Part shown: positions 1-7,929 of the stretch, one piece after another
Layout of the letters: each line of letters opens with the position of its first letter
Position numbering within the stretch: position 1 is the first letter of the stretch
Virus record (IMG/VR): IMGVR_UViG_2690316273_000016
Direction: 5' to 3' (one strand)
DNA: 7,929 nt
Source: a virus
Lineage: Duplodnaviria; Heunggongvirae; Uroviricota; Caudoviricetes
The notes under the pieces: model-generated
Told to the model about the DNA's origin: nothing
Databases searched by the model: none
What the model saw: the letters and a program-made list of their open reading frames with translations, nothing else
Made by a program: the position numbers and the translations under genes

Positions 1-1074
1 ATGGGAAGAGGGACACAACCTGAACGCGTTAAGCTGGGAAATTATCCCGATCTGAGTCTGAAAGCAGCCAGGGAAAAAGCCGCCCAGTGTCGCGCATGGC
101 TGGCTGAGGGGAAAAATCCACGCTATGAACTGAATTACACCATGCAGGAAGCGTTAAAGCCTGTAACGGTTGGCGATGCGCTCACCTATTGGCTTGAGTC
201 GTACGCAAAGGAAAAGCGCACAGATTACGAATCACTGAAAAGCCGGATCAATAAAAACATAATCACCAAAATTGGTGCTATGCCGCTGGATAAATGCGAG
301 CTACGGCACTGGCTGGCCTGCTTTGACCAGGTGGCAAAGCGAACACCTGTTACTGCCGGATTCGTGCTACAGACATGCAAACAGGCGCTTAAGTACTGCC
401 GGAGGCGGCGCTATGTAATCAGTAACGTTCTCGATGATCTGAACGTAGCGGACGTTGGGAAAAAACCGGATATAAGCGAACGTGTCTTAAGCAATAAAGA
501 GCTGGGCGAATTATTGCAGGCACTGGACAAAAAAATATTTTCCCCCTACTACATCGCGCTAATCCGCCTCCTGATTGTGTTCGGATGCCGGACGGTCGAA
601 CTTAGGTTATCGGAGATCGGCGAGTGGGATTTTACCGAAATGCTCTGGACCGTTCCGAAGGAGCACAGCAAAACGAAGGTAGCCATATTCCGGCCTATAC
701 CGGAAGCAATACTGCCGTTCATCACGCAGCTGGTGGAGCAGAACAGGCACACGGGCTTATTGCTGGGGGAAGTGAAACAGGAGGCCAGCGTATCGCAGTA
801 TGGAAGATTAGCGCACAGGAGGCTTAATCACCCCCACTGGTCACTGCATGACATCCGGCGCACCTTTACAACCATGCTGAACGATTTAGGCGTTGATCCG
901 CATGTCGTGGAGCAGCTTACAGGACACCAGATGCCAGGGATGCAACGAGTCTATAATCACTCCCGTTATCTGGATGCGAAACGCAATGCGCTGGATATGT
1001 GGACGGAGCGGTTAGGGATACTGGCGGGAGCACATGAAAACGTAACCGCACTACCAGCAGCCAGAAGAAAATAA
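1..1074 (+). CDS. int: P4-family tyrosine integrase (site-specific recombinase), 5'-partial
   Basis: Open frame runs from the window edge to TAA at 1072-1074. Translation carries tyrosine-recombinase catalytic features: HxxR box (WSLHDIRRTF), a downstream His (LTGHQ) and a C-terminal Tyr (RVYNHSRY). The visible N-terminus (KLGNYPDLSLKAAREKAAQCRAWLAEGKNP) aligns with an internal part of the P4-type N-terminal domain, so about 50 residues are probably missing; the ATG at 1-3 is likely an internal Met. Confidence 0.9.
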   Translation: MGRGTQPERVKLGNYPDLSLKAAREKAAQCRAWLAEGKNPRYELNYTMQEALKPVTVGDALTYWLESYAKEKRTDYESLKSRINKNIITKIGAMPLDKCELRHWLACFDQVAKRTPVTAGFVLQTCKQALKYCRRRRYVISNVLDDLNVADVGKKPDISERVLSNKELGELLQALDKKIFSPYYIALIRLLIVFGCRTVELRLSEIGEWDFTEMLWTVPKEHSKTKVAIFRPIPEAILPFITQLVEQNRHTGLLLGEVKQEASVSQYGRLAHRRLNHPHWSLHDIRRTFTTMLNDLGVDPHVVEQLTGHQMPGMQRVYNHSRYLDAKRNALDMWTERLGILAGAHENVTALPAARRK

Positions 1075-1120: not shown

Positions 1121-1170
1121 ATACAACGGCGAACAATGTGAAACAACGTGGAACAACCACGAACAAGAGG
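1121..1170. repeat. Array of five tandem 10-bp units, consensus (G/A)AACAA-N4; putative protein-binding sites
   Basis: Read directly: atacaacggc / gaacaatgtg / aaacaacgtg / gaacaaccac / gaacaagagg at exact 10-bp spacing. 1148-1166 matches the reverse complement of 7348-7377 at about 18 of 19 positions. Confidence 0.5.
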
Positions 1171-1449: not shown

Positions 1450-1638
1450 GTGTTAAGCACAGATCGCTTTATACGTGAAAAAGAATGTCAGCAACTTACA
1501 GGCCTGAGCCGCTCATGTCGGTATCGCCTGGAGAAGACCGGACAATTCCCATCACGGCGTAAACTCGGCGGTCGTTCCGTTGGCTGGTCTTTATCCGAAG
1601 TTCTGGCATGGAAGGACAGCCGCGAGGCAGTTCACTAA
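1450..1638 (+). CDS. alpA: AlpA-family phage transcriptional regulator (HTH)
   Basis: 62 codons, GTG start at 1450 four nt after GGGGG (1441-1445), stop TAA 1636-1638. The segment LTGLSRSCRYRLEKTGQFPSRRKLGGRSVGWSLSEVLAW fits the AlpA family pattern (TG-S--Y---G-FP---LG-RSVGW--EV--W). Position directly downstream of a P4-type integrase is typical. Confidence 0.85.
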   Translation: MLSTDRFIREKECQQLTGLSRSCRYRLEKTGQFPSRRKLGGRSVGWSLSEVLAWKDSREAVH

Positions 1639-1884
1639 TCAGGCTGGCGGCGCACCGCCGCCACCCATCCACTAACACAGAGATCTAACCATGAATACTG
1701 GATATACGCCCGAACAGGGGCGGGGCTTCGTTCGTCCTGGTGAAACTAAAAAGCCATGTTATCGGGTATTTTCAGGCATAAAAAAAGCGGCCCCGATAAG
1801 GAACCGCCTTTCTGAACAATTAACCTGCTGCGAAAAAAATGGATCAGTGCAGGGGAATTATATCAACCGTGTGGTGAAGCGCCA

Positions 1885-1922
1885 CTATTGCCGGATAACA
1901 AGCAAAACAAAGGCGACCGCAA
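1885..1922 (-). terminator. Putative intrinsic terminator for leftward transcription
   Basis: Stem GGCGACC (1902-1908) / GGTCGCC (1916-1922), loop gcaaaag. On the minus strand it is followed by TTTGTTTTGCTTG (complement of 1885-1901). No T-tract follows on the plus strand. Confidence 0.4.
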
Positions 1923-1998
1923 AAGGGTCGCCAGTGGGAACAAGGGAAAACAAAAGCATCGCCAACAATGCCACATTTGCGGCTGGTGGGCAATGCAA

Positions 1999-2187
1999 TC
2001 AGTCTGGTTCAGTTCGTTGCCATACCTGCAATGAGCGCTTTTCCCTGTACTCTTTAAGGAATTGCTCAAGGGCAAAAGCACATGGCGCGAATCTTTCTGA
2101 TTCATGCTCTATCTTTCTGCGCCGTCTTTTCCGTGCCGGTGATAATGTTTTGGTCAATTCTTTATCGGTCATTGTGTTGTCCTGCAT
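1999..2187 (-). CDS. Hypothetical small basic protein (57-62 aa), possible second gene of the leftward transcript
   Basis: Minus-strand ORF from the track; translation (…TDKELTKTLSPARKRRRRKIEHESERFAPCAFALEQFLKEYREKR…) looks more protein-like than the overlapping plus frame. Internal ATG at 2172 has an AGGA 7 nt upstream; the first ATG at 2187 has no clear SD. Lies between the upstream regulator gene and the 1885-1922 terminator. Weak support. Confidence 0.3.
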   Translation of the reverse strand: MQDNTMTDKELTKTLSPARKRRRRKIEHESERFAPCAFALEQFLKEYREKRSLQVWQRTEPD

Positions 2188-2229
2188 AGCAATGCGCCGT
2201 AATACCTTACACCACGGCGCTGGTGATGG

Positions 2230-2409
2230 TTATTCCTGCTCTTTGGCCTTGCGACGCTGGCGGTATTCAACTTCTCGCTTTAATGCTGCTGTTACAAACT
2301 GCCCTGTACTTTCACCAGGCATTTTTACCGCCTCAACATTGTTCATAACTTCATGCGGAACCCTTGCCGCAACTGTTTGTGATTTTGCGTTTACTGCTTT
2401 TGTTGCCAT
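2230..2409 (-). CDS. Small putative DNA-binding regulator (59 aa), possibly ribbon-helix-helix; repressor-like
   Basis: Absent from the ORF track (below 60 aa). Hand translation of the minus strand from ATG (complement of 2407-2409) to TAA (complement of 2230-2232): MATKAVNAKSQTVAARVPHEVMNNVEAVKMPGESTGQFVTAALKREVEYRQRRKAKEQE. SD AAGGGG sits 8 nt upstream. Putative strand-helix-GxS/T turn-helix layout is reminiscent of Arc/CopG RHH proteins. Divergent from a promoter region with three palindromic operators. Confidence 0.5.
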   Translation of the reverse strand: MATKAVNAKSQTVAARVPHEVMNNVEAVKMPGESTGQFVTAALKREVEYRQRRKAKEQE

Positions 2410-2438
2410 GTTGTGTACCCCTTACAAAAAACAAATGC

Positions 2439-2511
2439 AGTATGCAGGAAAAAAAATAAGTGTTCAACACTTGACGTGTTTAACACCAGAGCTTAAATTG
2501 GTGTTCAACAC
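2439..2511. promoter_or_regulatory. Divergent promoter/operator switch: three palindromic operators GTGTT(C/T)AACAC over back-to-back sigma70-like promoters
   Basis: Operators at 2460-2470 (GTGTTCAACAC), 2476-2486 (GTGTTTAACAC) and 2501-2511 (GTGTTCAACAC, flanked g…c). Rightward promoter: -35 TTGACG 2471-2476, 17-bp spacer, -10 TAAATT 2494-2499. Leftward promoter on the minus strand: -35 TTGAAC (complement of 2462-2467), 17-bp spacer, -10 CATACT (complement of 2439-2444). Operators overlap both -35 elements and the rightward start site. Confidence 0.55.
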
Positions 2512-2608
2512 CTTGCTGATGCAAGGTGCAGAAACGACGAAACCCGGCAGTGCGCTAACACTAACCGGGCTTCTAACCACCAACGATAGAAAGCGTATCG
2601 AGGTAGCT

Positions 2609-2812
2609 ATGAGAAATTATACCAGACACCCGCAAGGGCGGGACTCGTACAACCTGAATAAATACATCTGGCGTTTTATCGCCCTGAGCACGGCACAACC
2701 GCGCGTGATTACCATTGAGGCCACCAGCGAACAGGAAGCGCGTCAGCAATCTCCTGATGGCTGCGTGATGGTATTCGCTGCCCGTATTCGCCAGGGGGAA
2801 CACCATGATTAA
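2609..2812 (+). CDS. Hypothetical small protein (67 aa), first gene of the rightward replication operon
   Basis: ATG at 2609 with GAGG 5-6 nt upstream; stop TAA 2810-2812 overlaps the next start (ATGATTAA). It is the only protein-like part of the 373-aa stop-free frame. An in-frame ATG at 2519 is possible but lacks an SD. Confidence 0.55.
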   Translation: MRNYTRHPQGRDSYNLNKYIWRFIALSTAQPRVITIEATSEQEARQQSPDGCVMVFAARIRQGEHHD

Positions 2813-3014
2813 CCTGTCACTTACCGACCTTAACCGCGTTCAGTTTCGTGAGAAATTTACCGGGCAGCTACTGGTCAATGTGGATAAAGGTCGCGTGGTG
2901 TGTAATTACCACCTGCCAGATGAAGCCATTGTCGCAACAAGGGAATCATTACAGGAACTCGCAGAACGTGCCGGAATGATTAATGCGAATATTCAGGGGG
3001 TGAGACATGCATAA
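2805..3014 (+). CDS. Hypothetical small protein (69 aa), paralog of the next gene
   Basis: ATG 2805 preceded by GGGG; stop overlaps the next start. Shares a motif block with the downstream ORF (TGQLLVNVDKGRVVCNYHL versus TGRVLVYLEKGRVKCQCRL). Confidence 0.65.
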   Translation: MINLSLTDLNRVQFREKFTGQLLVNVDKGRVVCNYHLPDEAIVATRESLQELAERAGMINANIQGVRHA

Positions 3015-3219
3015 TCATGAATCGCACTTACCTGTAGTGCTGAATGTGCCGTCAGATTATACGGGGCGCGTACTGGTGTATCTGGAAAAAGGCCGGGTTA
3101 AATGTCAGTGCCGTTTAATGGAAAACGAATTTATCAGCACTCTTGCGGGATTTTCTGAAATGCTCACTAAATCGGGTGTTAGTGCAGACCAGCTACGCGG
3201 GGGCGATTATGCGAAATAA
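3007..3219 (+). CDS. Hypothetical small protein (70 aa), paralog of the previous gene
   Basis: ATG 3007 six nt after GGGGG; overlaps the previous stop (ATGcaTAA). Shares the TG--LV---KGRV-C block with 2805-3014. Confidence 0.65.
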   Translation: MHNHESHLPVVLNVPSDYTGRVLVYLEKGRVKCQCRLMENEFISTLAGFSEMLTKSGVSADQLRGGDYAK

Positions 3220-3433: not shown

Positions 3434-3721
3434 ATGAAAAAGAAAAATTCTGGCTTTACTGCCAGCGGCCCCGCTCGGCCTGAAATCCGCCCCGGCGATA
3501 TTTTCCGGGATAACTATGGCGGCACGGTAACGATAAAAGGCGTGGCAGAACGGCGCATCACTTACCGCCGTGATGGCTACGAATATGACTGCGTGATGCC
3601 TGTTTATCAGTTCCGGCGTGATTTCACGCTGGTGGGCCATCGTAAAGCCGTAAATCAGAAACGTGCAGCAAGTCATATCCGCAAAATTCGTGAAATGCTG
3701 GTCGCAGGGGGTAAAAAATGA
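3434..3721 (+). CDS. Hypothetical basic protein (95 aa)
   Basis: ATG 3434 with GGAG 9 nt upstream; stop TGA 3719-3721 overlaps the primase ATG at 3718 (ATGA). Protein-like composition, basic C-terminus. Confidence 0.6.
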   Translation: MKKKNSGFTASGPARPEIRPGDIFRDNYGGTVTIKGVAERRITYRRDGYEYDCVMPVYQFRRDFTLVGHRKAVNQKRAASHIRKIREMLVAGGKK

Positions 3722-5532
3722 AACTGGCACCGAACGTAAAACAGCAGTCACGCGGCATAAAACACAAAGAAACAGAAGTCATTATTTTTGCGGGTAGTGA
3801 TGCCTGGTCACACGCAAAACAATGGCAGGAACATGACGCGCGTATGGCCGGAGATAATGAGCCTCCTGTGTGGCTTGGGGAGCAGCAGTTATCCGAACTG
3901 GATAAGCTGCAAATTGTGCCGGAAGGCAGAAAATCCGTGCGCATATTCAGGGCCGGATATCTTGCGCCAGTAATGATAAAGGCGATTGGTCAGAAGCTGG
4001 CGGCGGCAGGCGTACAGGATGCAAATTTTTATCCTGAGGGTATGCACGGTCAGGAGGTGCAGAACTGGCGCGGATATCTGGCCCGTGAGCGCCAGAATCT
4101 TTCTGATGGTCTGGTGATTCAGCTTCCTGTTAAGAAAAAAACAGAAGACAGCGCCGCACCACTGGCGCTTAACCAGATGGGAGCAAGCCAGCGCGGCGAA
4201 GTTCTCCTGGCACATTATGGCGGTGAACTGGCGATTCATGCCGACTCTGACACTGTTCACCATTACAACGGCGTTGTATGGGAGCCGATTCAGGATAAAG
4301 AGTTACAGCGTGCTATGGCGCAGATTTTCATTGATGCGGAGATCAGCTATTCGCAGAACGCCATTAAATCGGCGGTCGATACCATGAAGTTAAGTTTGCC
4401 TGTAATGGGGAATACAGCCCGTAACCTGATTGGATTCAGTAACGGGGTATTTGATACCAGAACAGGTAATTTTCGGGAGCATAACAAAAACGACTGGTTG
4501 TTAATTGCCAGTGAATTACCTTTCAGCCCACCAGCAGAGGGGGAAACGCTGGCAACACATGCGCCGAATTTCTGGAAGTGGTTACGCTGCTCGGTGGCAG
4601 AGAATGACCGCAAGACGGATCGCGTGCTGGCTGCATTATTCATGGTGCTGGCGAACCGGTACGACTGGCAGTTATTCATTGAGGTAACAGGTCCAGGGGG
4701 AAGTGGTAAAAGCGTGATGGCGGAGATTTGCACTATGCTGGCGGGTAAGGCCAACACAGTATCGGCAAGCATGAAGGCGCTGGAAGATGCAAGGGAACGC
4801 GCGTTAGTGGTTGGCTTTTCGCTGATTATCATGCCGGATATGACCCGCTACGCTGGTGATGGCGCAGGAATTAAGGCCATTACAGGCGGTGACAAGGTGG
4901 CAATCGACCCGAAGCATAAAGCCCCCTACTCAACACGCATTCAGGCGGTCGTGCTGGCGGTGAACAATAACGCCATGTCATTCAGTGACCGCAGCGGGGG
5001 GATCTCACGTCGTCGGGTGATATTCAATTTTTCGGAGGTTGTACCGGAGAACGAGCGCGACCCCATGCTGGCAGAAAAAATAGAAGGAGAGCTGGCGGTT
5101 GTGATTCGCCATCTGCTTACTCGTTTTTCTGACCAGGACGAAGCTAAACGCCTGCTGTATGAGCAGCAGAAATCAGAAGAAGCTCTGGTGATAAAACGCG
5201 AGGGCGATTCGCTGGTGGACTTCTGTGGCTATCTCATGTCGTCGGTAATGTGTGATGGTCTGTTAGTGGGTAATGCCGAAATTATTCCGTTCAGTCCGCG
5301 CAGGTATCTTTATCACGCCTATCTGGCATATATGAGGGCACACGGATTCGGTAAACCTGTAACACTGACGCGCTTCGGTAAAGATATGCCGGGGGCAATG
5401 GCGGAATATGGCAGGGAGTATATAAAACGGAAAACGAAGCACGGTTTGCGTTCAAATGTGACACTGACAGAGGATTCAGAAGACTGTATGCCATCATGTG
5501 CATCGGTCACAAATGACGACAGCAAAAATTAA
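3718..5532 (+). CDS. P4-family phage/plasmid primase C-terminal domain protein (D5-like SF3 NTPase/helicase); element replication initiator
   Basis: 604-aa ORF. Walker A GPGGSGKS (…FIEVTGPGGSGKSVMAEI…). Flanking blocks (NGVFDTRTGNFREH…, …ITGGDKVAIDPKHKAPYS…, …RRRVIFNFSEVVPENERDPMLAEKI…) match the conserved layout of P4-family primase C-terminal / D5_N-type proteins. SD GGGGG precedes the start. Confidence 0.88.
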   Translation: MKLAPNVKQQSRGIKHKETEVIIFAGSDAWSHAKQWQEHDARMAGDNEPPVWLGEQQLSELDKLQIVPEGRKSVRIFRAGYLAPVMIKAIGQKLAAAGVQDANFYPEGMHGQEVQNWRGYLARERQNLSDGLVIQLPVKKKTEDSAAPLALNQMGASQRGEVLLAHYGGELAIHADSDTVHHYNGVVWEPIQDKELQRAMAQIFIDAEISYSQNAIKSAVDTMKLSLPVMGNTARNLIGFSNGVFDTRTGNFREHNKNDWLLIASELPFSPPAEGETLATHAPNFWKWLRCSVAENDRKTDRVLAALFMVLANRYDWQLFIEVTGPGGSGKSVMAEICTMLAGKANTVSASMKALEDARERALVVGFSLIIMPDMTRYAGDGAGIKAITGGDKVAIDPKHKAPYSTRIQAVVLAVNNNAMSFSDRSGGISRRRVIFNFSEVVPENERDPMLAEKIEGELAVVIRHLLTRFSDQDEAKRLLYEQQKSEEALVIKREGDSLVDFCGYLMSSVMCDGLLVGNAEIIPFSPRRYLYHAYLAYMRAHGFGKPVTLTRFGKDMPGAMAEYGREYIKRKTKHGLRSNVTLTEDSEDCMPSCASVTNDDSKN

Positions 5533-5544
5533 ACTTATGGAATA

Positions 5545-5775
5545 ACTGTTCACCACTGTTCACCCTGTTATAAATATCTTTTATATCAGTACATTATAGG
5601 GTGAACAGTTATTTGTGAACTGTTCACCAAACTATTCACTGTTCACCTTTTTGATTATTTATTGAGCTTTAAGGGTGAACAGTGGTGAACAGTTGGTGAA
5701 TAGTTTTTGTGAAACTGTTCACCCCTTAACATTATGAATAAAAAGGGAAAATCTCAAAAGGTGAACAGGTGAAGG
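5545..5775. repeat. Iteron array in both orientations (CTGTTCACC / GGTGAACAG) with AT-rich spacers; putative replication origin
   Basis: Forward TGTTCACC at 5547-5554, 5557-5564 (two tandem 10-bp ACTGTTCACC units), 5621-5628, 5640-5647, 5716-5723, plus variant CTATTCACT at 5632-5640. Reverse GGTGAACAG at 5600-5608, 5674-5682, 5684-5692, 5760-5768, variant GGTGAATAG at 5695-5703, half-site GTGAAC at 5615-5620. Lies directly 3' of the primase gene. Confidence 0.6.
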
Positions 5776-6523: not shown

Positions 6524-7054
6524 ATGACAACGCTGACCATTAACCGGAAGCCGAAAGGCATTTACGGCACGCCGCAGAAAACGACGCAGGCGGCGCAAGA
6601 GCAGGATAAAACCACATCGGCGCATAAAGTGATACCCGGCAATCAGAACGCACAGCAGAAGCCCACAGGGGCGACACCGTGGCAGCATATGACCAAAAGG
6701 CAGCGCAAAAACCGCCGACGCGTTAACCGCCTCACTGAGATGTGGCCTGACTTATTCAGCCATAAAGCACCGAAGCCGCTTAAGGTGGGGATATTCGACG
6801 ACCTGATGCAGGATATCGCCGTCAGGGGGCTGGCATTCGGGCCGGGGGTATTACGTGCGACGCTGGCATCCTATGCGCAGTCTCCGCGCTATTACCGCGC
6901 CCTGATAGCTGGTGGCGCACGTTACGATCTGAAAGGCCAGCCATGTGGGGAAGTGACACCACAGGAACAGCAGGAGGCAGAAACACGGCTGATGGTGCTG
7001 AATGAGAAGCACAAGCGCCAGCGCCGGGCAGCAAAGGGGGATACATGCCAGTGA
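6524..7054 (+). CDS. FinO/ProQ-domain protein (putative RNA chaperone)
   Basis: 176 aa. Basic, low-complexity N-terminal half, then a block MWPDLFSHKAPKPLKVGIFDDLMQDIAVRGLAFGPGVLRATLASYAQSPRYYRALIAGGARYDLKGQPCGEVTPQEQQEAE that aligns by eye with the F-plasmid FinO core (WWPGLF…GIRDVLLEDVAQR…[40 protein letters not shown]). Stop overlaps the next ATG. Confidence 0.8.
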   Translation: MTTLTINRKPKGIYGTPQKTTQAAQEQDKTTSAHKVIPGNQNAQQKPTGATPWQHMTKRQRKNRRRVNRLTEMWPDLFSHKAPKPLKVGIFDDLMQDIAVRGLAFGPGVLRATLASYAQSPRYYRALIAGGARYDLKGQPCGEVTPQEQQEAETRLMVLNEKHKRQRRAAKGDTCQ

Positions 7055-7293
7055 CATTTGAAGAAGTTCAGCAACATAAAAAGCTTCATGGTTTTGATGA
7101 TCTGGAAACCACGACAGCAAAAAAATATCGTCGGTTGCTTTCTTCCGATGCGTTATTTTTTGTGGATCATCATGATTTTCTGCGTAGCTCACTGACCGGG
7201 GAAATTTTCGCAACCAACCGTGAGCAGGTGGAAGCGATGATCGAATATTTGTGGAAAATAAGACGCAGAATGCGGGAGCCAGTGAAACAATAA
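7045..7293 (+). CDS. Hypothetical protein (82 aa), last gene of the accessory operon
   Basis: ATG 7045 four nt after GGGGG (7036-7040), overlapping the upstream stop (TGA 7052-7054); stop TAA 7291-7293, followed immediately by an intrinsic terminator. No family recognised. Confidence 0.6.
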   Translation: MPVTFEEVQQHKKLHGFDDLETTTAKKYRRLLSSDALFFVDHHDFLRSSLTGEIFATNREQVEAMIEYLWKIRRRMREPVKQ

Positions 7294-7302
7294 AGCGATA
7301 AA

Positions 7303-7329
7303 GGCCCGGATTTTTTCCGGGCCTTTTTT
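7303..7329 (+). terminator. Rho-independent terminator closing the accessory operon
   Basis: Stem GGCCCGGA (7303-7310) / TCCGGGCC (7316-7323), loop ttttt, then TTTTTT (7324-7329), ten nt after the stop of the last ORF. Confidence 0.75.
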
Positions 7330-7347
7330 CAGGTTTTGTAAATTATT

Positions 7348-7377
7348 TGTTCGTGGTTGTTCCAGGTTGTTCGGTGA
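7348..7377. repeat. Three tandem 10-bp units TTGTTC-N4 (ttgttcgtgg / ttgttccagg / ttgttcggtg), inverted copy of the 1121-1170 array
   Basis: Read directly; its reverse complement (caccgaacaacctggaacaaccacgaacaa) matches 1148-1166. Sits just upstream of a candidate -35 at 7390. Confidence 0.5.
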
Positions 7378-7389
7378 TTCTGGCTGATG

Positions 7390-7417
7390 TTTACATACTG
7401 ATTTTTATGTATATGTT
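7390..7417 (+). promoter_or_regulatory. Candidate sigma70-like promoter for the capsid operon
   Basis: -35 TTTACA (7390-7395), 16-bp spacer, -10 TATGTT (7412-7417). Predicts a leader of about 140 nt before the ATG at 7567. Weak, sequence-only. Confidence 0.3.
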
Positions 7418-7566
7418 GGCGTGTGGCACTCAGACGTGAGCCGCCACAATGCCGCCTGACCCCCTGCGCGATGCCGGGTTGATCTGCGAGATGCCGAGAG
7501 TGTCGGGCGGCGCTCCCCCCGTGTTGGTTTCACGTCCTGAATCTTAACCAATGCGAGAAAACCTTC

Positions 7567-7929
7567 ATGAAGAAATTAATCGAACTCCGCCAGCAAAAAA
7601 CCGCCCTGAAAAACCAGATGCGATCCCTGCTGGAAAAAGCCGACAGTGAAAACCGCAGCCTGAACGATGACGAAGGCAAACAGTTTGATGAACTGCGTGC
7701 AAAAGCCGATTCCCTCGACACAGAAATTTCCCGCCTCGAGTCTGTGGCTGATGAAGAACGTAACCAGCCTGGTGTTCCCGTCGAAGATAAAATCACCAAA
7801 AATGAGCTACGCTCTTACATTCTGACCGGGGAAACCCGCAACCTGTCCGGCAGTGTTCCGGCTGATGGTGGTTATACGGTTATCCCGGAACTGAACAGAG
7901 AAATTATGCGTCAGCTTTCTGATGAGTCG
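7567..7929 (+). CDS. HK97-family major capsid protein, N-terminal 121 aa (3'-partial, runs off the window)
   Basis: Not in the ORF track (no stop inside the window). ATG at 7567, open in frame to 7929. Translation: a charged coiled-coil-like N-terminus (MKKLIELRQQKTALKNQMRSLLEKADSENRSLNDDEGKQFDELRAKADSLDTEISRLES…) followed by …PADGGYTVIPELNREIMRQLSDES, matching the characteristic GGYLVP-E---I--L motif near the start of HK97-fold capsid proteins. Confidence 0.7.
   Translation, partial: MKKLIELRQQKTALKNQMRSLLEKADSENRSLNDDEGKQFDELRAKADSLDTEISRLESVADEERNQPGVPVEDKITKNELRSYILTGETRNLSGSVPADGGYTVIPELNREIMRQLSDES

Follow-up and report, generated by a model that had tools for sequence, protein, structure and literature searches.

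Phage-inducible chromosomal islands of the capsid-forming kind (cf-PICIs) are a satellite family described in 2022-23 (10.1101/2022.09.08.507074; 10.1101/2025.02.11.637232; PMC10085698). Experiments on EcCIEDL933, EcCIGN02175 and KpCIDSM30104 have established helper-dependent induction, small tail-less capsids and transfer with hijacked tails (10.1101/2022.09.08.507074; 10.1101/2025.02.11.637232), and neither of these two preprints mentions a promoter of the packaging operon. Here we describe the region in front of the capsid gene in a 7,929-nt stretch of the IMG/VR virus record IMGVR_UViG_2690316273_000016 (Caudoviricetes); this whole stretch is called the window below. We consider it probable that the window represents the left-hand 7.9 kb of a cf-PICI, that the open reading frame (ORF) starting at 7567 heads the morphogenesis and packaging operon, and that the leader preceding it is a cis-acting riboregulator gating the capsid operon.

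For such a leader, the closest mechanistic precedent is that of the IncI-alpha/IncB plasmid gene repZ (repA), in which the loop of stem-loop I pairs next to the ribosome-binding site; this pairing is needed for translation and is blocked by the Inc antisense RNA (summarised in PMC8053102). The leader in the window resembles it in having a G/C-rich four-nucleotide loop near the 5' end and a complementary tetramer approximately 100 nt downstream, by the ribosome-binding site.

The capsid leader and its conservation

The leader covers 7423-7566 (about 144 nt) and is the 5' untranslated region (UTR) directly upstream of the capsid ATG. Its elements and the start of the gene are the following:

7423 to 7447, plus strand: hairpin P1, GUGGC-A-CUCA-GACG-UGAG-CC-GCCAC, with the loop GACG at 7433-7436; nearly invariant
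7451 to 7511, plus strand: P2, a long hairpin of variable sequence with the outer stem GCCGCCUGAC / GUCGGGCGGC (7451-7465 pairing with 7497-7511)
7512 to 7525, plus strand: pyrimidine-rich single-stranded linker GCUCCCCCCGUGUU, C/U-rich in all leaders
7526 to 7540, plus strand: 5' arm of P3, GGUUUC-A-CGU, overlapping UCACGUC at 7530-7536
7553 to 7563, plus strand: 3' arm of P3, GCGAGAAAACC, with the Shine-Dalgarno-like purines GAGA, the only ones present, 9-12 nt ahead of the ATG
7567 to 7929, plus strand: major capsid protein gene, first 121 codons (363 nt), with the ATG at 7567 and the frame open to the window edge

The strand partnering the 5' arm of P3 reads ACG-GAAACC, and GCG-A-G-A-AAACC in the window, whose row is out of register around this arm in one MAFFT alignment (A3).

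An earlier note on this DNA, made from the letters alone, had pointed to a GC-rich stretch of roughly 140 nt with repeated GATGCCG motifs and stem-forming segments that looked like a structured leader, and all of these observations were borne out. The GC content is 62.4% in 7420-7560 and 72% in 7451-7511, compared with 49.6% in the whole window, and the GC-rich stretch corresponds to P2. The repeated motif is part of a 13-nt direct repeat, CTGCG(C/A)GATGCCG, present as CTGCGCGATGCCG at 7464-7476 and CTGCGAGATGCCG at 7484-7496 (92% identical), and the segments able to form stems are the two halves of the outer P2 stem and, over a longer distance, GACGTGA at 7433-7439 and TCACGTC at 7530-7536. 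The two repeats are degenerate copies of two G-N-G-A-N pentaloop hairpins that form a three-way junction inside P2 in the main family of leaders. The interior module of P2 seen in the window recurs in one other locus (L174); because leader types differ in this interior, a role as the universal functional core is unlikely.

The capsid-based searches gave 80 genomic and 80 viral loci, and the leader as a whole is conserved in more than 200 loci from many genera, its hosts including Escherichia, Klebsiella, Citrobacter, Enterobacter, Kosakonia, Kluyvera, Erwinia, Pantoea, Rahnella, Pectobacterium, Providencia, Proteus and some Xenorhabdus. The parts shared within the 120-150 nt before the ATG are P1, P2, the pyrimidine linker and a segment UGGUUUCACGUCU ... 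ACGGAAACC abutting the start codon. In an alignment of 35 sequences, the structure consisting of P1, P2 and P3 (S1) was 94.4% paired, compared with 87.0% for shuffles and 31-45% for controls in which the structure was slid along the alignment. The covariation score was 0.264 against 0.121, none of 500 shuffles reaching that of the structure, and double-sided changes were found at 13 pairs, with compensatory changes in 11 of the 12 pairs of P2. P1, despite its near invariance, has compensatory variants of its own: GUGAC..CUCC pairing with GGAG..GUCAC, AUGGC with GCCAU and, in leaders of the EDL933 type, CCAG with CUGG. De novo prediction with RNAalifold recovered P1, P2 and, of P3, the inner pairs, and the minimum free energy (MFE) structures computed with RNAfold had the same P1, P2 and P3 architecture in five divergent leaders. 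The structural evidence for the leader is comparative, not thermodynamic.

A covariance model (R1) built from this alignment matched in 28 of 86 sources, always on the plus strand and always ending at the capsid start; it had no match elsewhere in the window and none in the HK022 genome at E values up to 1. Among 120 further viral contigs bearing P1, the capsid ORF lies 120-146 nt downstream in 115, the remaining 5 being truncated, or a start-region variant and a decayed copy. P1 was seen nowhere but directly upstream of the capsid gene in all complete loci examined, and the leader was found in 3 of 50,697 phage records, one of which is a packaged cf-PICI. Rfam 15, scanned at three stringency levels, gave no match to the leader at E <= 1 in the window or in two related islands, those of the EDL933 type (L002) and of vB_KppS-Ant (L003), and a scan focused on 7330-7620 returned chance-level matches only (E 6-9.5); the P1 sequence was not found in the searchable literature. 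Judged by these comparisons, the leader is a real and conserved element, a candidate cis-regulatory RNA that has apparently not been described before.

Some loci found along the way differ from this picture. In one viral contig (L272), the copy has decayed: the capsid start is ATA in place of ATG, the frame contains a stop, and both P2 and P3 are mutated, which shows the state of the leader without selection. The record of Klebsiella phage P12620-1 (PQ569648.1, 106.5 kb) has a cf-PICI-like block of leader, capsid, protease and portal at its end, at 102-106 kb; the block may stem from an assembly join or from a satellite assembled together with the phage. Three viral contigs of other cf-PICI lineages (L120, L123 and L124) have unrelated leaders upstream of the capsid gene that are structured too; in these, the 5' sequence CAUGUAGGU or CAUGCAGG has one or two complementary copies just ahead of the start codon.

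Alternative pairings in the leader

The loop and the 3' arm of P1 (GACGUGA, 7433-7439) are complementary to UCACGUC at 7530-7536, and in the window this long-range pairing between P1 and P3 can be extended to 10 bp with one bulged C. Across the alignment, the long-range helix is 98.2% paired, and it competes both with the inner stem of P1 and with P3. The two pairings share a base, and we counted the triple formed by the base that ends the 5' arm of P1, the base that begins its 3' arm and the one immediately 5' of CGUC; this was done with anchored regular expressions, and the joint MAFFT alignment (A4), which has a four-column gap in P1, was set aside. The triple is A:U:A in 44 leaders (the main family), C:G:C in 11 (a variant family) and G:C:G in 11 (the EDL933 type), with no exception among the 66 distinct leaders from 86 loci. 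Similarly, the downstream sequence has changed to match in all 13 loci retrieved with a P1-variant pattern from which the main-family base is excluded. Selection acting on two helices that exclude each other predicts such a base with two covarying partners.

The leaders differ in what the second pairing is connected to. In leaders of the EDL933 type, P1 has as its partner GCGUCCUGG, which forms the 5' arm of a hairpin of 11 positions; this hairpin includes an AGGA Shine-Dalgarno sequence, with U7 and then the ATG coming after it. The main family, to which the window belongs, has no U-run, and its control would therefore be translational. Read from these sequences, the EDL933 type appears to couple the same sensor to a terminator-like platform, while the window's family would be purely translational.

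The comparison with the plasmid leader can now be taken further. As in the IncI type, a hairpin loop is complementary to a sequence beside the ribosome-binding site: GACG pairs with CGUC, and this complementarity extends over 7-10 bp and is maintained in evolution. In contrast to repZ, the pairing reaches into the arm of P1, so P1 must open; there is no sequence similarity between the two, and an antisense RNA and a conserved leader peptide were not found here. As leader peptides we considered the window ORFs at 7347-7439 and 7449-7547 and, on the minus strand, 7405-7551, and rejected them: they are not conserved, several genera lacking the upstream ATG and P2 differing in length and sequence from leader to leader. 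Inspection of the leader by eye showed no evident antisense promoter. Mutually exclusive pairings in a leader before late structural genes are also known from classical attenuators and the lambda PR'-6S-tR' region, and the hairpin and U7 that end the EDL933-type leader just before the ATG add to this likeness. Unlike in those systems, no leader peptide, Q-like protein or Q-binding element was identified here.

Promoter region and proposed control of the capsid operon

Between the upstream genes and the leader lie several DNA elements, one of which has a second copy near the other end of the window:

7300 to 7332, plus strand: intrinsic terminator of the replication/accessory operon, AAAGGCCCGGA-TTTTT-TCCGGGCCTTT, with the T-run extending to about 7332
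7336 to 7352, plus strand: conserved upstream box TTGTAAATTATTTGTTC, kept across genera and also in cf-PICI lineages without the structured leader
7347 to 7371, plus strand: three phased TTGTTC repeats with a period of 10 nt, TTGTTCGTGGTTGTTCCAGGTTGTT; in the window the box runs into this array
1142 to 1166, minus strand: inverted second copy of the 25-nt array, in the int-alpA intergenic region
7390 to 7417, plus strand: sigma-70-type promoter, with -35 TTTACA at 7390-7395, a 16-nt spacer and -10 TATGTT at 7412-7417

The stem of the terminator is a perfect 11-bp inverted repeat (7300-7310 and 7316-7326). A simple terminator scanner overlooked it, probably as a result of the stem reaching into the T-run, and also overlooked the hairpin before the ATG in the EDL933 type; both hairpins rest on inverted-repeat and RNAfold results. 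The capsid start had been placed about 240 nt past this terminator, and we measured approximately 233 nt to the ATG. The promoter scan gave one site, which is about the chance expectation for the region. A -10 of the form TAnnnT is conserved in position in all aligned leaders, and the 5-6 nt between it and P1 vary; counted by hand, the box ends 61-62 nt before the -10 in the window, in vB_KppS-Ant and in the Klebsiella phage record. Transcription is predicted to start near 7423-7425, so that the transcript would begin with P1 at its extreme 5' end.

The 25-nt array matches twice in the window, where 0.00 matches are expected; the same duplication is found in two near-identical Escherichia coli islands, FDAARGOS_1249 (L001) and AST240 (L179), and in the EDL933-type island, and the same 25-mer precedes capsid genes in 22 loci. 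The helper-induced activator AlpA turns on its own promoter in EcCICFT073 (PMC6092414) and is required for the induction of cf-PICIs (10.1101/2022.09.08.507074). We infer that the TTGTTC array is a candidate AlpA operator common to the alpA control region and the capsid promoter; as the array recurs in the alpA control region, AlpA probably activates the capsid operon. The AlpA antiterminator of P. aeruginosa was considered as a model and rejected: it is Q-like, makes its DNA contacts at 128-142, is longer and is not recognisably related to the 62-aa PF05930 protein of the window. A separate arrangement is seen in many islands with loci of the vB_KppS-Ant type (for example at 12095-12130 in L003 itself, and in L005, L056 and L170), which have a covarying GC-rich hairpin and a T-run between the box and the -10. 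This hairpin is the terminator of the upstream operon and overlaps the -35 position; with no good -35 there, the capsid promoter of these loci is probably activator-dependent.

The elements suggest the following course of events. The capsid operon would be transcribed from its own sigma-70-type promoter at 7390-7417, downstream of the accessory terminator, and would probably be turned on by helper-induced AlpA acting through the TTGTTC repeats. In a first state of the transcript, P1 and P3 would form and bury the weak ribosome-binding site; in the EDL933 type, transcription would terminate in this state. In a second state, the loop of P1 would capture the 5' arm of P3, and the resulting long-range helix would leave the ribosome-binding site exposed. 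The leader would then gate the expression of the capsid operon after transcription initiation, as a safety lock or a timing device for genes, among them one for a terminase that cuts cos, whose expression should be silent when the island is integrated. Possible, though short of probable in our judgement, is the more specific view that the leader represents a satellite-specific, undescribed cis-RNA family working as a two-state switch, in which the P1 loop vies for one strand with the hairpin at the ribosome-binding site or, in the EDL933 subfamily, with a terminator, and that this switch is set by a factor of the helper, the host or the island and ties head production to the late phase of the helper.

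One candidate for the factor setting the switch is the ProQ/FinO-like protein encoded at 6524-7054: a plasmid ProQ/FinO protein represses through binding the first stem-loop of a leader (PMC8053102), which makes the gene a plausible partner. Against this, among 97 loci tested the gene is present only in FDAARGOS_1249 and AST240, i.e., in this island subtype. The 82-aa phrog_1957 protein is found near about 24 of 42 leader-bearing loci and 2 of 55 loci without the leader, and is absent from the complete island vB_KppS-Ant, in which no recognisable RNA-binding domain was found. A conserved RNA-binding partner encoded by the island was thus rejected, ProQ/FinO being restricted to the subtype and phrog_1957 missing from vB_KppS-Ant.

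The searches for a conserved trans factor, an antisense promoter and a leader peptide gave none, which would suit a static 5' UTR, one that through its 5'-terminal hairpin and compact fold protects the long operon mRNA from 5'-end-dependent decay and whose long-range helix opens the ribosome-binding site constitutively, with no switching. The predicted location of P1 at the 5' end agrees with such a role, and the long-range helix could form co-transcriptionally before the 3' arm of P3 exists. We nevertheless regard a static leader as unlikely: base 7437 covaries with two alternative partners, which is expected only if both pairings are selected, and the EDL933 subfamily joins the element to a terminator-like hairpin and U7, an odd combination for a constitutive role.

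A clearly improbable explanation is an RNA of the HK022 put type, which would bind the transcribing RNA polymerase and carry it through the terminators of the 6-kb operon by processive antitermination. The put RNA acts in cis, and the leader resembles it in being promoter-proximal and having two stem-loops, P1 and P2 following the promoter directly as in putL (PMC9378689); the operon is long, and HK022-like phages are known tail donors for cf-PICIs (10.1101/2025.02.11.637232). The covariance model, however, detects no similarity in HK022 at the threshold given above, the interior of P2 is not conserved between leader types, and the conserved complementarity of P1 to the hairpin at the ribosome-binding site would be needless for the put mechanism.

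Several observations weigh against a cf-PICI with a riboregulated capsid operon, the reading that we prefer. The folding energy of the leader is not significantly different from that of shuffles (z = -1.03; 36 of 200 fold as well), and a nested model of the long-range state lies 6-11 kcal/mol above the MFE. This nested approximation sacrifices the outer stem of P1, which a real pseudoknot would keep, and the duplex alone contributes -11 to -20 kcal/mol. P1 and the long-range helix are nearly invariant in the main family, and their covariation amounts to three sequence classes and few evolutionary events. The Xenorhabdus, Gilliamella, Pasteurellaceae and L120/L123 types have short or unrelated leaders, and the leader is therefore not indispensable to the cf-PICI lifestyle. 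For the island itself, the head-closure gene is absent relative to EcCIEDL933, and no genome matches the full window exactly, so the downstream gene content is inferred from close relatives.

The island around the leader

The earlier note had taken the final 363 nt to encode the N-terminus of a capsid protein of the HK97 type with a GGY-V-PE motif. The motif is present as DGGYTVIPE at residues 100-108, and the capsid assignment held through full-length genes in near-identical E. coli chromosomes, on which our identification rests. Of the profile search proposed for the partial protein, the literal version failed: the window fragment alone gave no significant capsid match in Pfam, because the Phage_capsid domain (PF05065) starts at residue 101, behind roughly 100 N-terminal residues, and only about 21 domain residues lie within the window. 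The full-length relatives do match. The segment 6500-7929 has matches in 44 E. coli chromosomes, the best of which are 99.4-99.7% identical and have the gene annotated as 'phage major capsid protein', and a full-length relative (381 aa) matches PF05065 with E 8.1e-61 and 206 bits over profile positions 1-279 of 280, as well as PHROG 10, 'major head protein'. Its closest solved structure is PDB 9gyi, 'Major head protein' (E 3.8e-184), followed by capsids of the Rhodobacter gene transfer agent; similarity to HK022 gp5 is marginal (BLASTP E 0.011). As in HK97-family capsids with a prohead protease, the match to PF05065 runs end to end and an S78 protease gene comes next. The identity to the EDL933-type cf-PICI capsid is 74%.

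The note had also read the element as a capsid-forming satellite whose remaining morphogenesis genes lie beyond the window, and had proposed looking downstream; done on near-identical relatives, this supported the reading. In FDAARGOS_1249, where the island lies between roxA and phoQ, and in AST240, where it lies between allE and allC, the order is capsid, S78 prohead protease, portal, gp6/Ad1 adaptor, HNH, a 61-aa ORF, P27-type terS, terL and a 94-aa ORF. The profile matches in FDAARGOS_1249 are PF04586 (7.5e-45) for the protease, PF04860 (1.6e-91) for the portal, PF05135 and phrog_40 for the adaptor, and PF01844, PF05119, PF03354 and PF20441 for the HNH and terminase genes. Neither a tail and lysis module nor a prematurely ending capsid ORF, either of which was to speak against a satellite, is seen in these relatives: the maps contain no tail or lysis genes, and phoQ or allC follows directly after the island. 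The FDAARGOS_1249 island is approximately 14.7 kb long and bounded by direct repeats of 24-25 nt, with the integrase at one end and the attachment site adjoining; the same type of island occupies two chromosomal sites.

On this gene content the island is a capsid-forming PICI, an ordinary Type B member of a known satellite family and not a new one. It shares with EcCIEDL933, EcCIGN02175 and KpCIDSM30104 the int, alpA and primase genes on the left, the capsid-to-terL block on the right, the lack of tail and lysis genes and, at about 14.7 kb, a size within the 10-18 kb range of the family. Counted by Pfam and PHROG annotation, it has 10 of the 11 core components of the SatelliteFinder cfPICI model, and the forbidden tail and holin genes are absent; SatelliteFinder tolerates one missing component as Type B, a class with 10 of 11 components that makes up 459 of 969 cfPICIs (PMC10085698). 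Relative to the family, the differences are in the details. The EDL933-type island and vB_KppS-Ant carry the head-closure gene Phage_HCP, which the window's island type lacks: its only head-tail joining gene is of the Ad1 type, located between portal and HNH (20032-20334 in L001, 19376-19678 in L179), whereas the other two have both. Since adaptor and connector set tail specificity in cf-PICIs, a single adaptor without head closure may change the tails that can be used. The accessory genes differ as well, ProQ/FinO-like here and PerC-like in the EDL933-type island, and the capsid leaders of the window and of EcCIEDL933 fall into different sequence subfamilies. By extension from the family experiments, the island would make and fill its own small heads and would depend on a helper phage for no more than induction, tails and lysis.

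The alternative raised in the note, a small defective prophage in which the capsid gene is a decaying leftover, did not survive this comparison and is very improbable. In its favour, the element carries phage-type structural genes and an integrase, and one head-tail joining gene is missing in comparison with EcCIEDL933. The same intact and compact 10-component set is nevertheless found at both the roxA/phoQ and the allE/allC sites, all ORFs of the two islands are intact and follow the gene order of cf-PICIs, Type B islands with 10 of 11 components are common, and the leader and promoter are under purifying selection. In addition, the related island vB_KppS-Ant was recovered as a packaged linear genome of 16.5 kb.

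The remaining genes of the window agree with the left part of a cf-PICI:

1 to 1074, plus strand: tyrosine integrase, matching Phage_integrase and Arm-DNA-bind_3
1450 to 1638, plus strand: AlpA-family regulator, 62 aa (PF05930, E 2.7e-18)
between alpA and the primase gene, plus strand: small accessory genes, including one for a DUF4222 protein
3718 to 5532, plus strand: D5/P4-type primase, matching D5_N, DUF5906 and Pox_D5
after the primase gene, plus strand: SSB gene
6524 to 7054, plus strand: ProQ/FinO-family RNA-binding protein, two genes upstream of the leader
7045 to 7293, plus strand: 82-aa protein, phrog_1957, without a Pfam match

The best single genome match covers 92% of the window at 99.4% identity. 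The segment 2808-3421 is not shared with FDAARGOS_1249, and the accessory region is therefore mosaic. Two overlapping neighbouring small genes at 2805-3014 and 3007-3219 are paralogues, both matching phrog_340 (function unassigned). The 373-aa ORF at 1691-2812 (plus strand) in the mechanical ORF list is probably no gene; in relatives this stretch is annotated as a pseudogene fragment, a minus-strand YlcI/YnfO gene (2230-2409) and an Icd-like gene. Near the Icd-like region, 2536-2608 on the minus strand has a sub-threshold Rfam match to the antitoxin RNA SymR (32.8 bits against a gathering threshold of 61, E 0.003). The icd genes of the bacteriophage P1 type have a c4 antisense RNA upstream, and there may be a small regulatory RNA near 2536-2608 and the Icd-like gene. 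Directly 3' of the primase gene, the AT-rich segment 5540-5770 (about 33% GC) contains approximately 10 copies of ACTGTTCACC in both orientations and is probably the iteron-type replication origin of the island; it also gave spurious sub-threshold Rfam matches to miRNAs.

That the conserved intergenic sequence acts as DNA, as a cos or pac site, an origin or a protein operator, is scarcely credible, although both the box upstream of the promoter and the TTGTTC array are clearly elements of the DNA. In vB_KppS-Ant, the packaged genome begins 22 nt ahead of terS; this places cos between HNH and terS and rules out the leader as the cos site. The iteron-rich origin lies at 5540-5770, and pairing in P2 is kept while its sequence changes, the mark of a sequence that folds as a single strand.

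Taken alone, the island contributes little, as cf-PICIs have already been recognised as common in Enterobacteriaceae. How they silence their capsid and terminase genes while integrated, and how the timing is matched to helper tails, has not yet been described, and the promoter, the repeat array shared with alpA and the two-pairing leader could together account for a transcriptional activation as well as a post-transcriptional lock. As P1 occurs only upstream of the capsid gene in complete loci and is so rare among phage records, it could serve as a sequence marker of this cf-PICI lineage. The leader would add a case from a phage satellite to the few long-range pseudoknot or anti-sequestor controls of translation.

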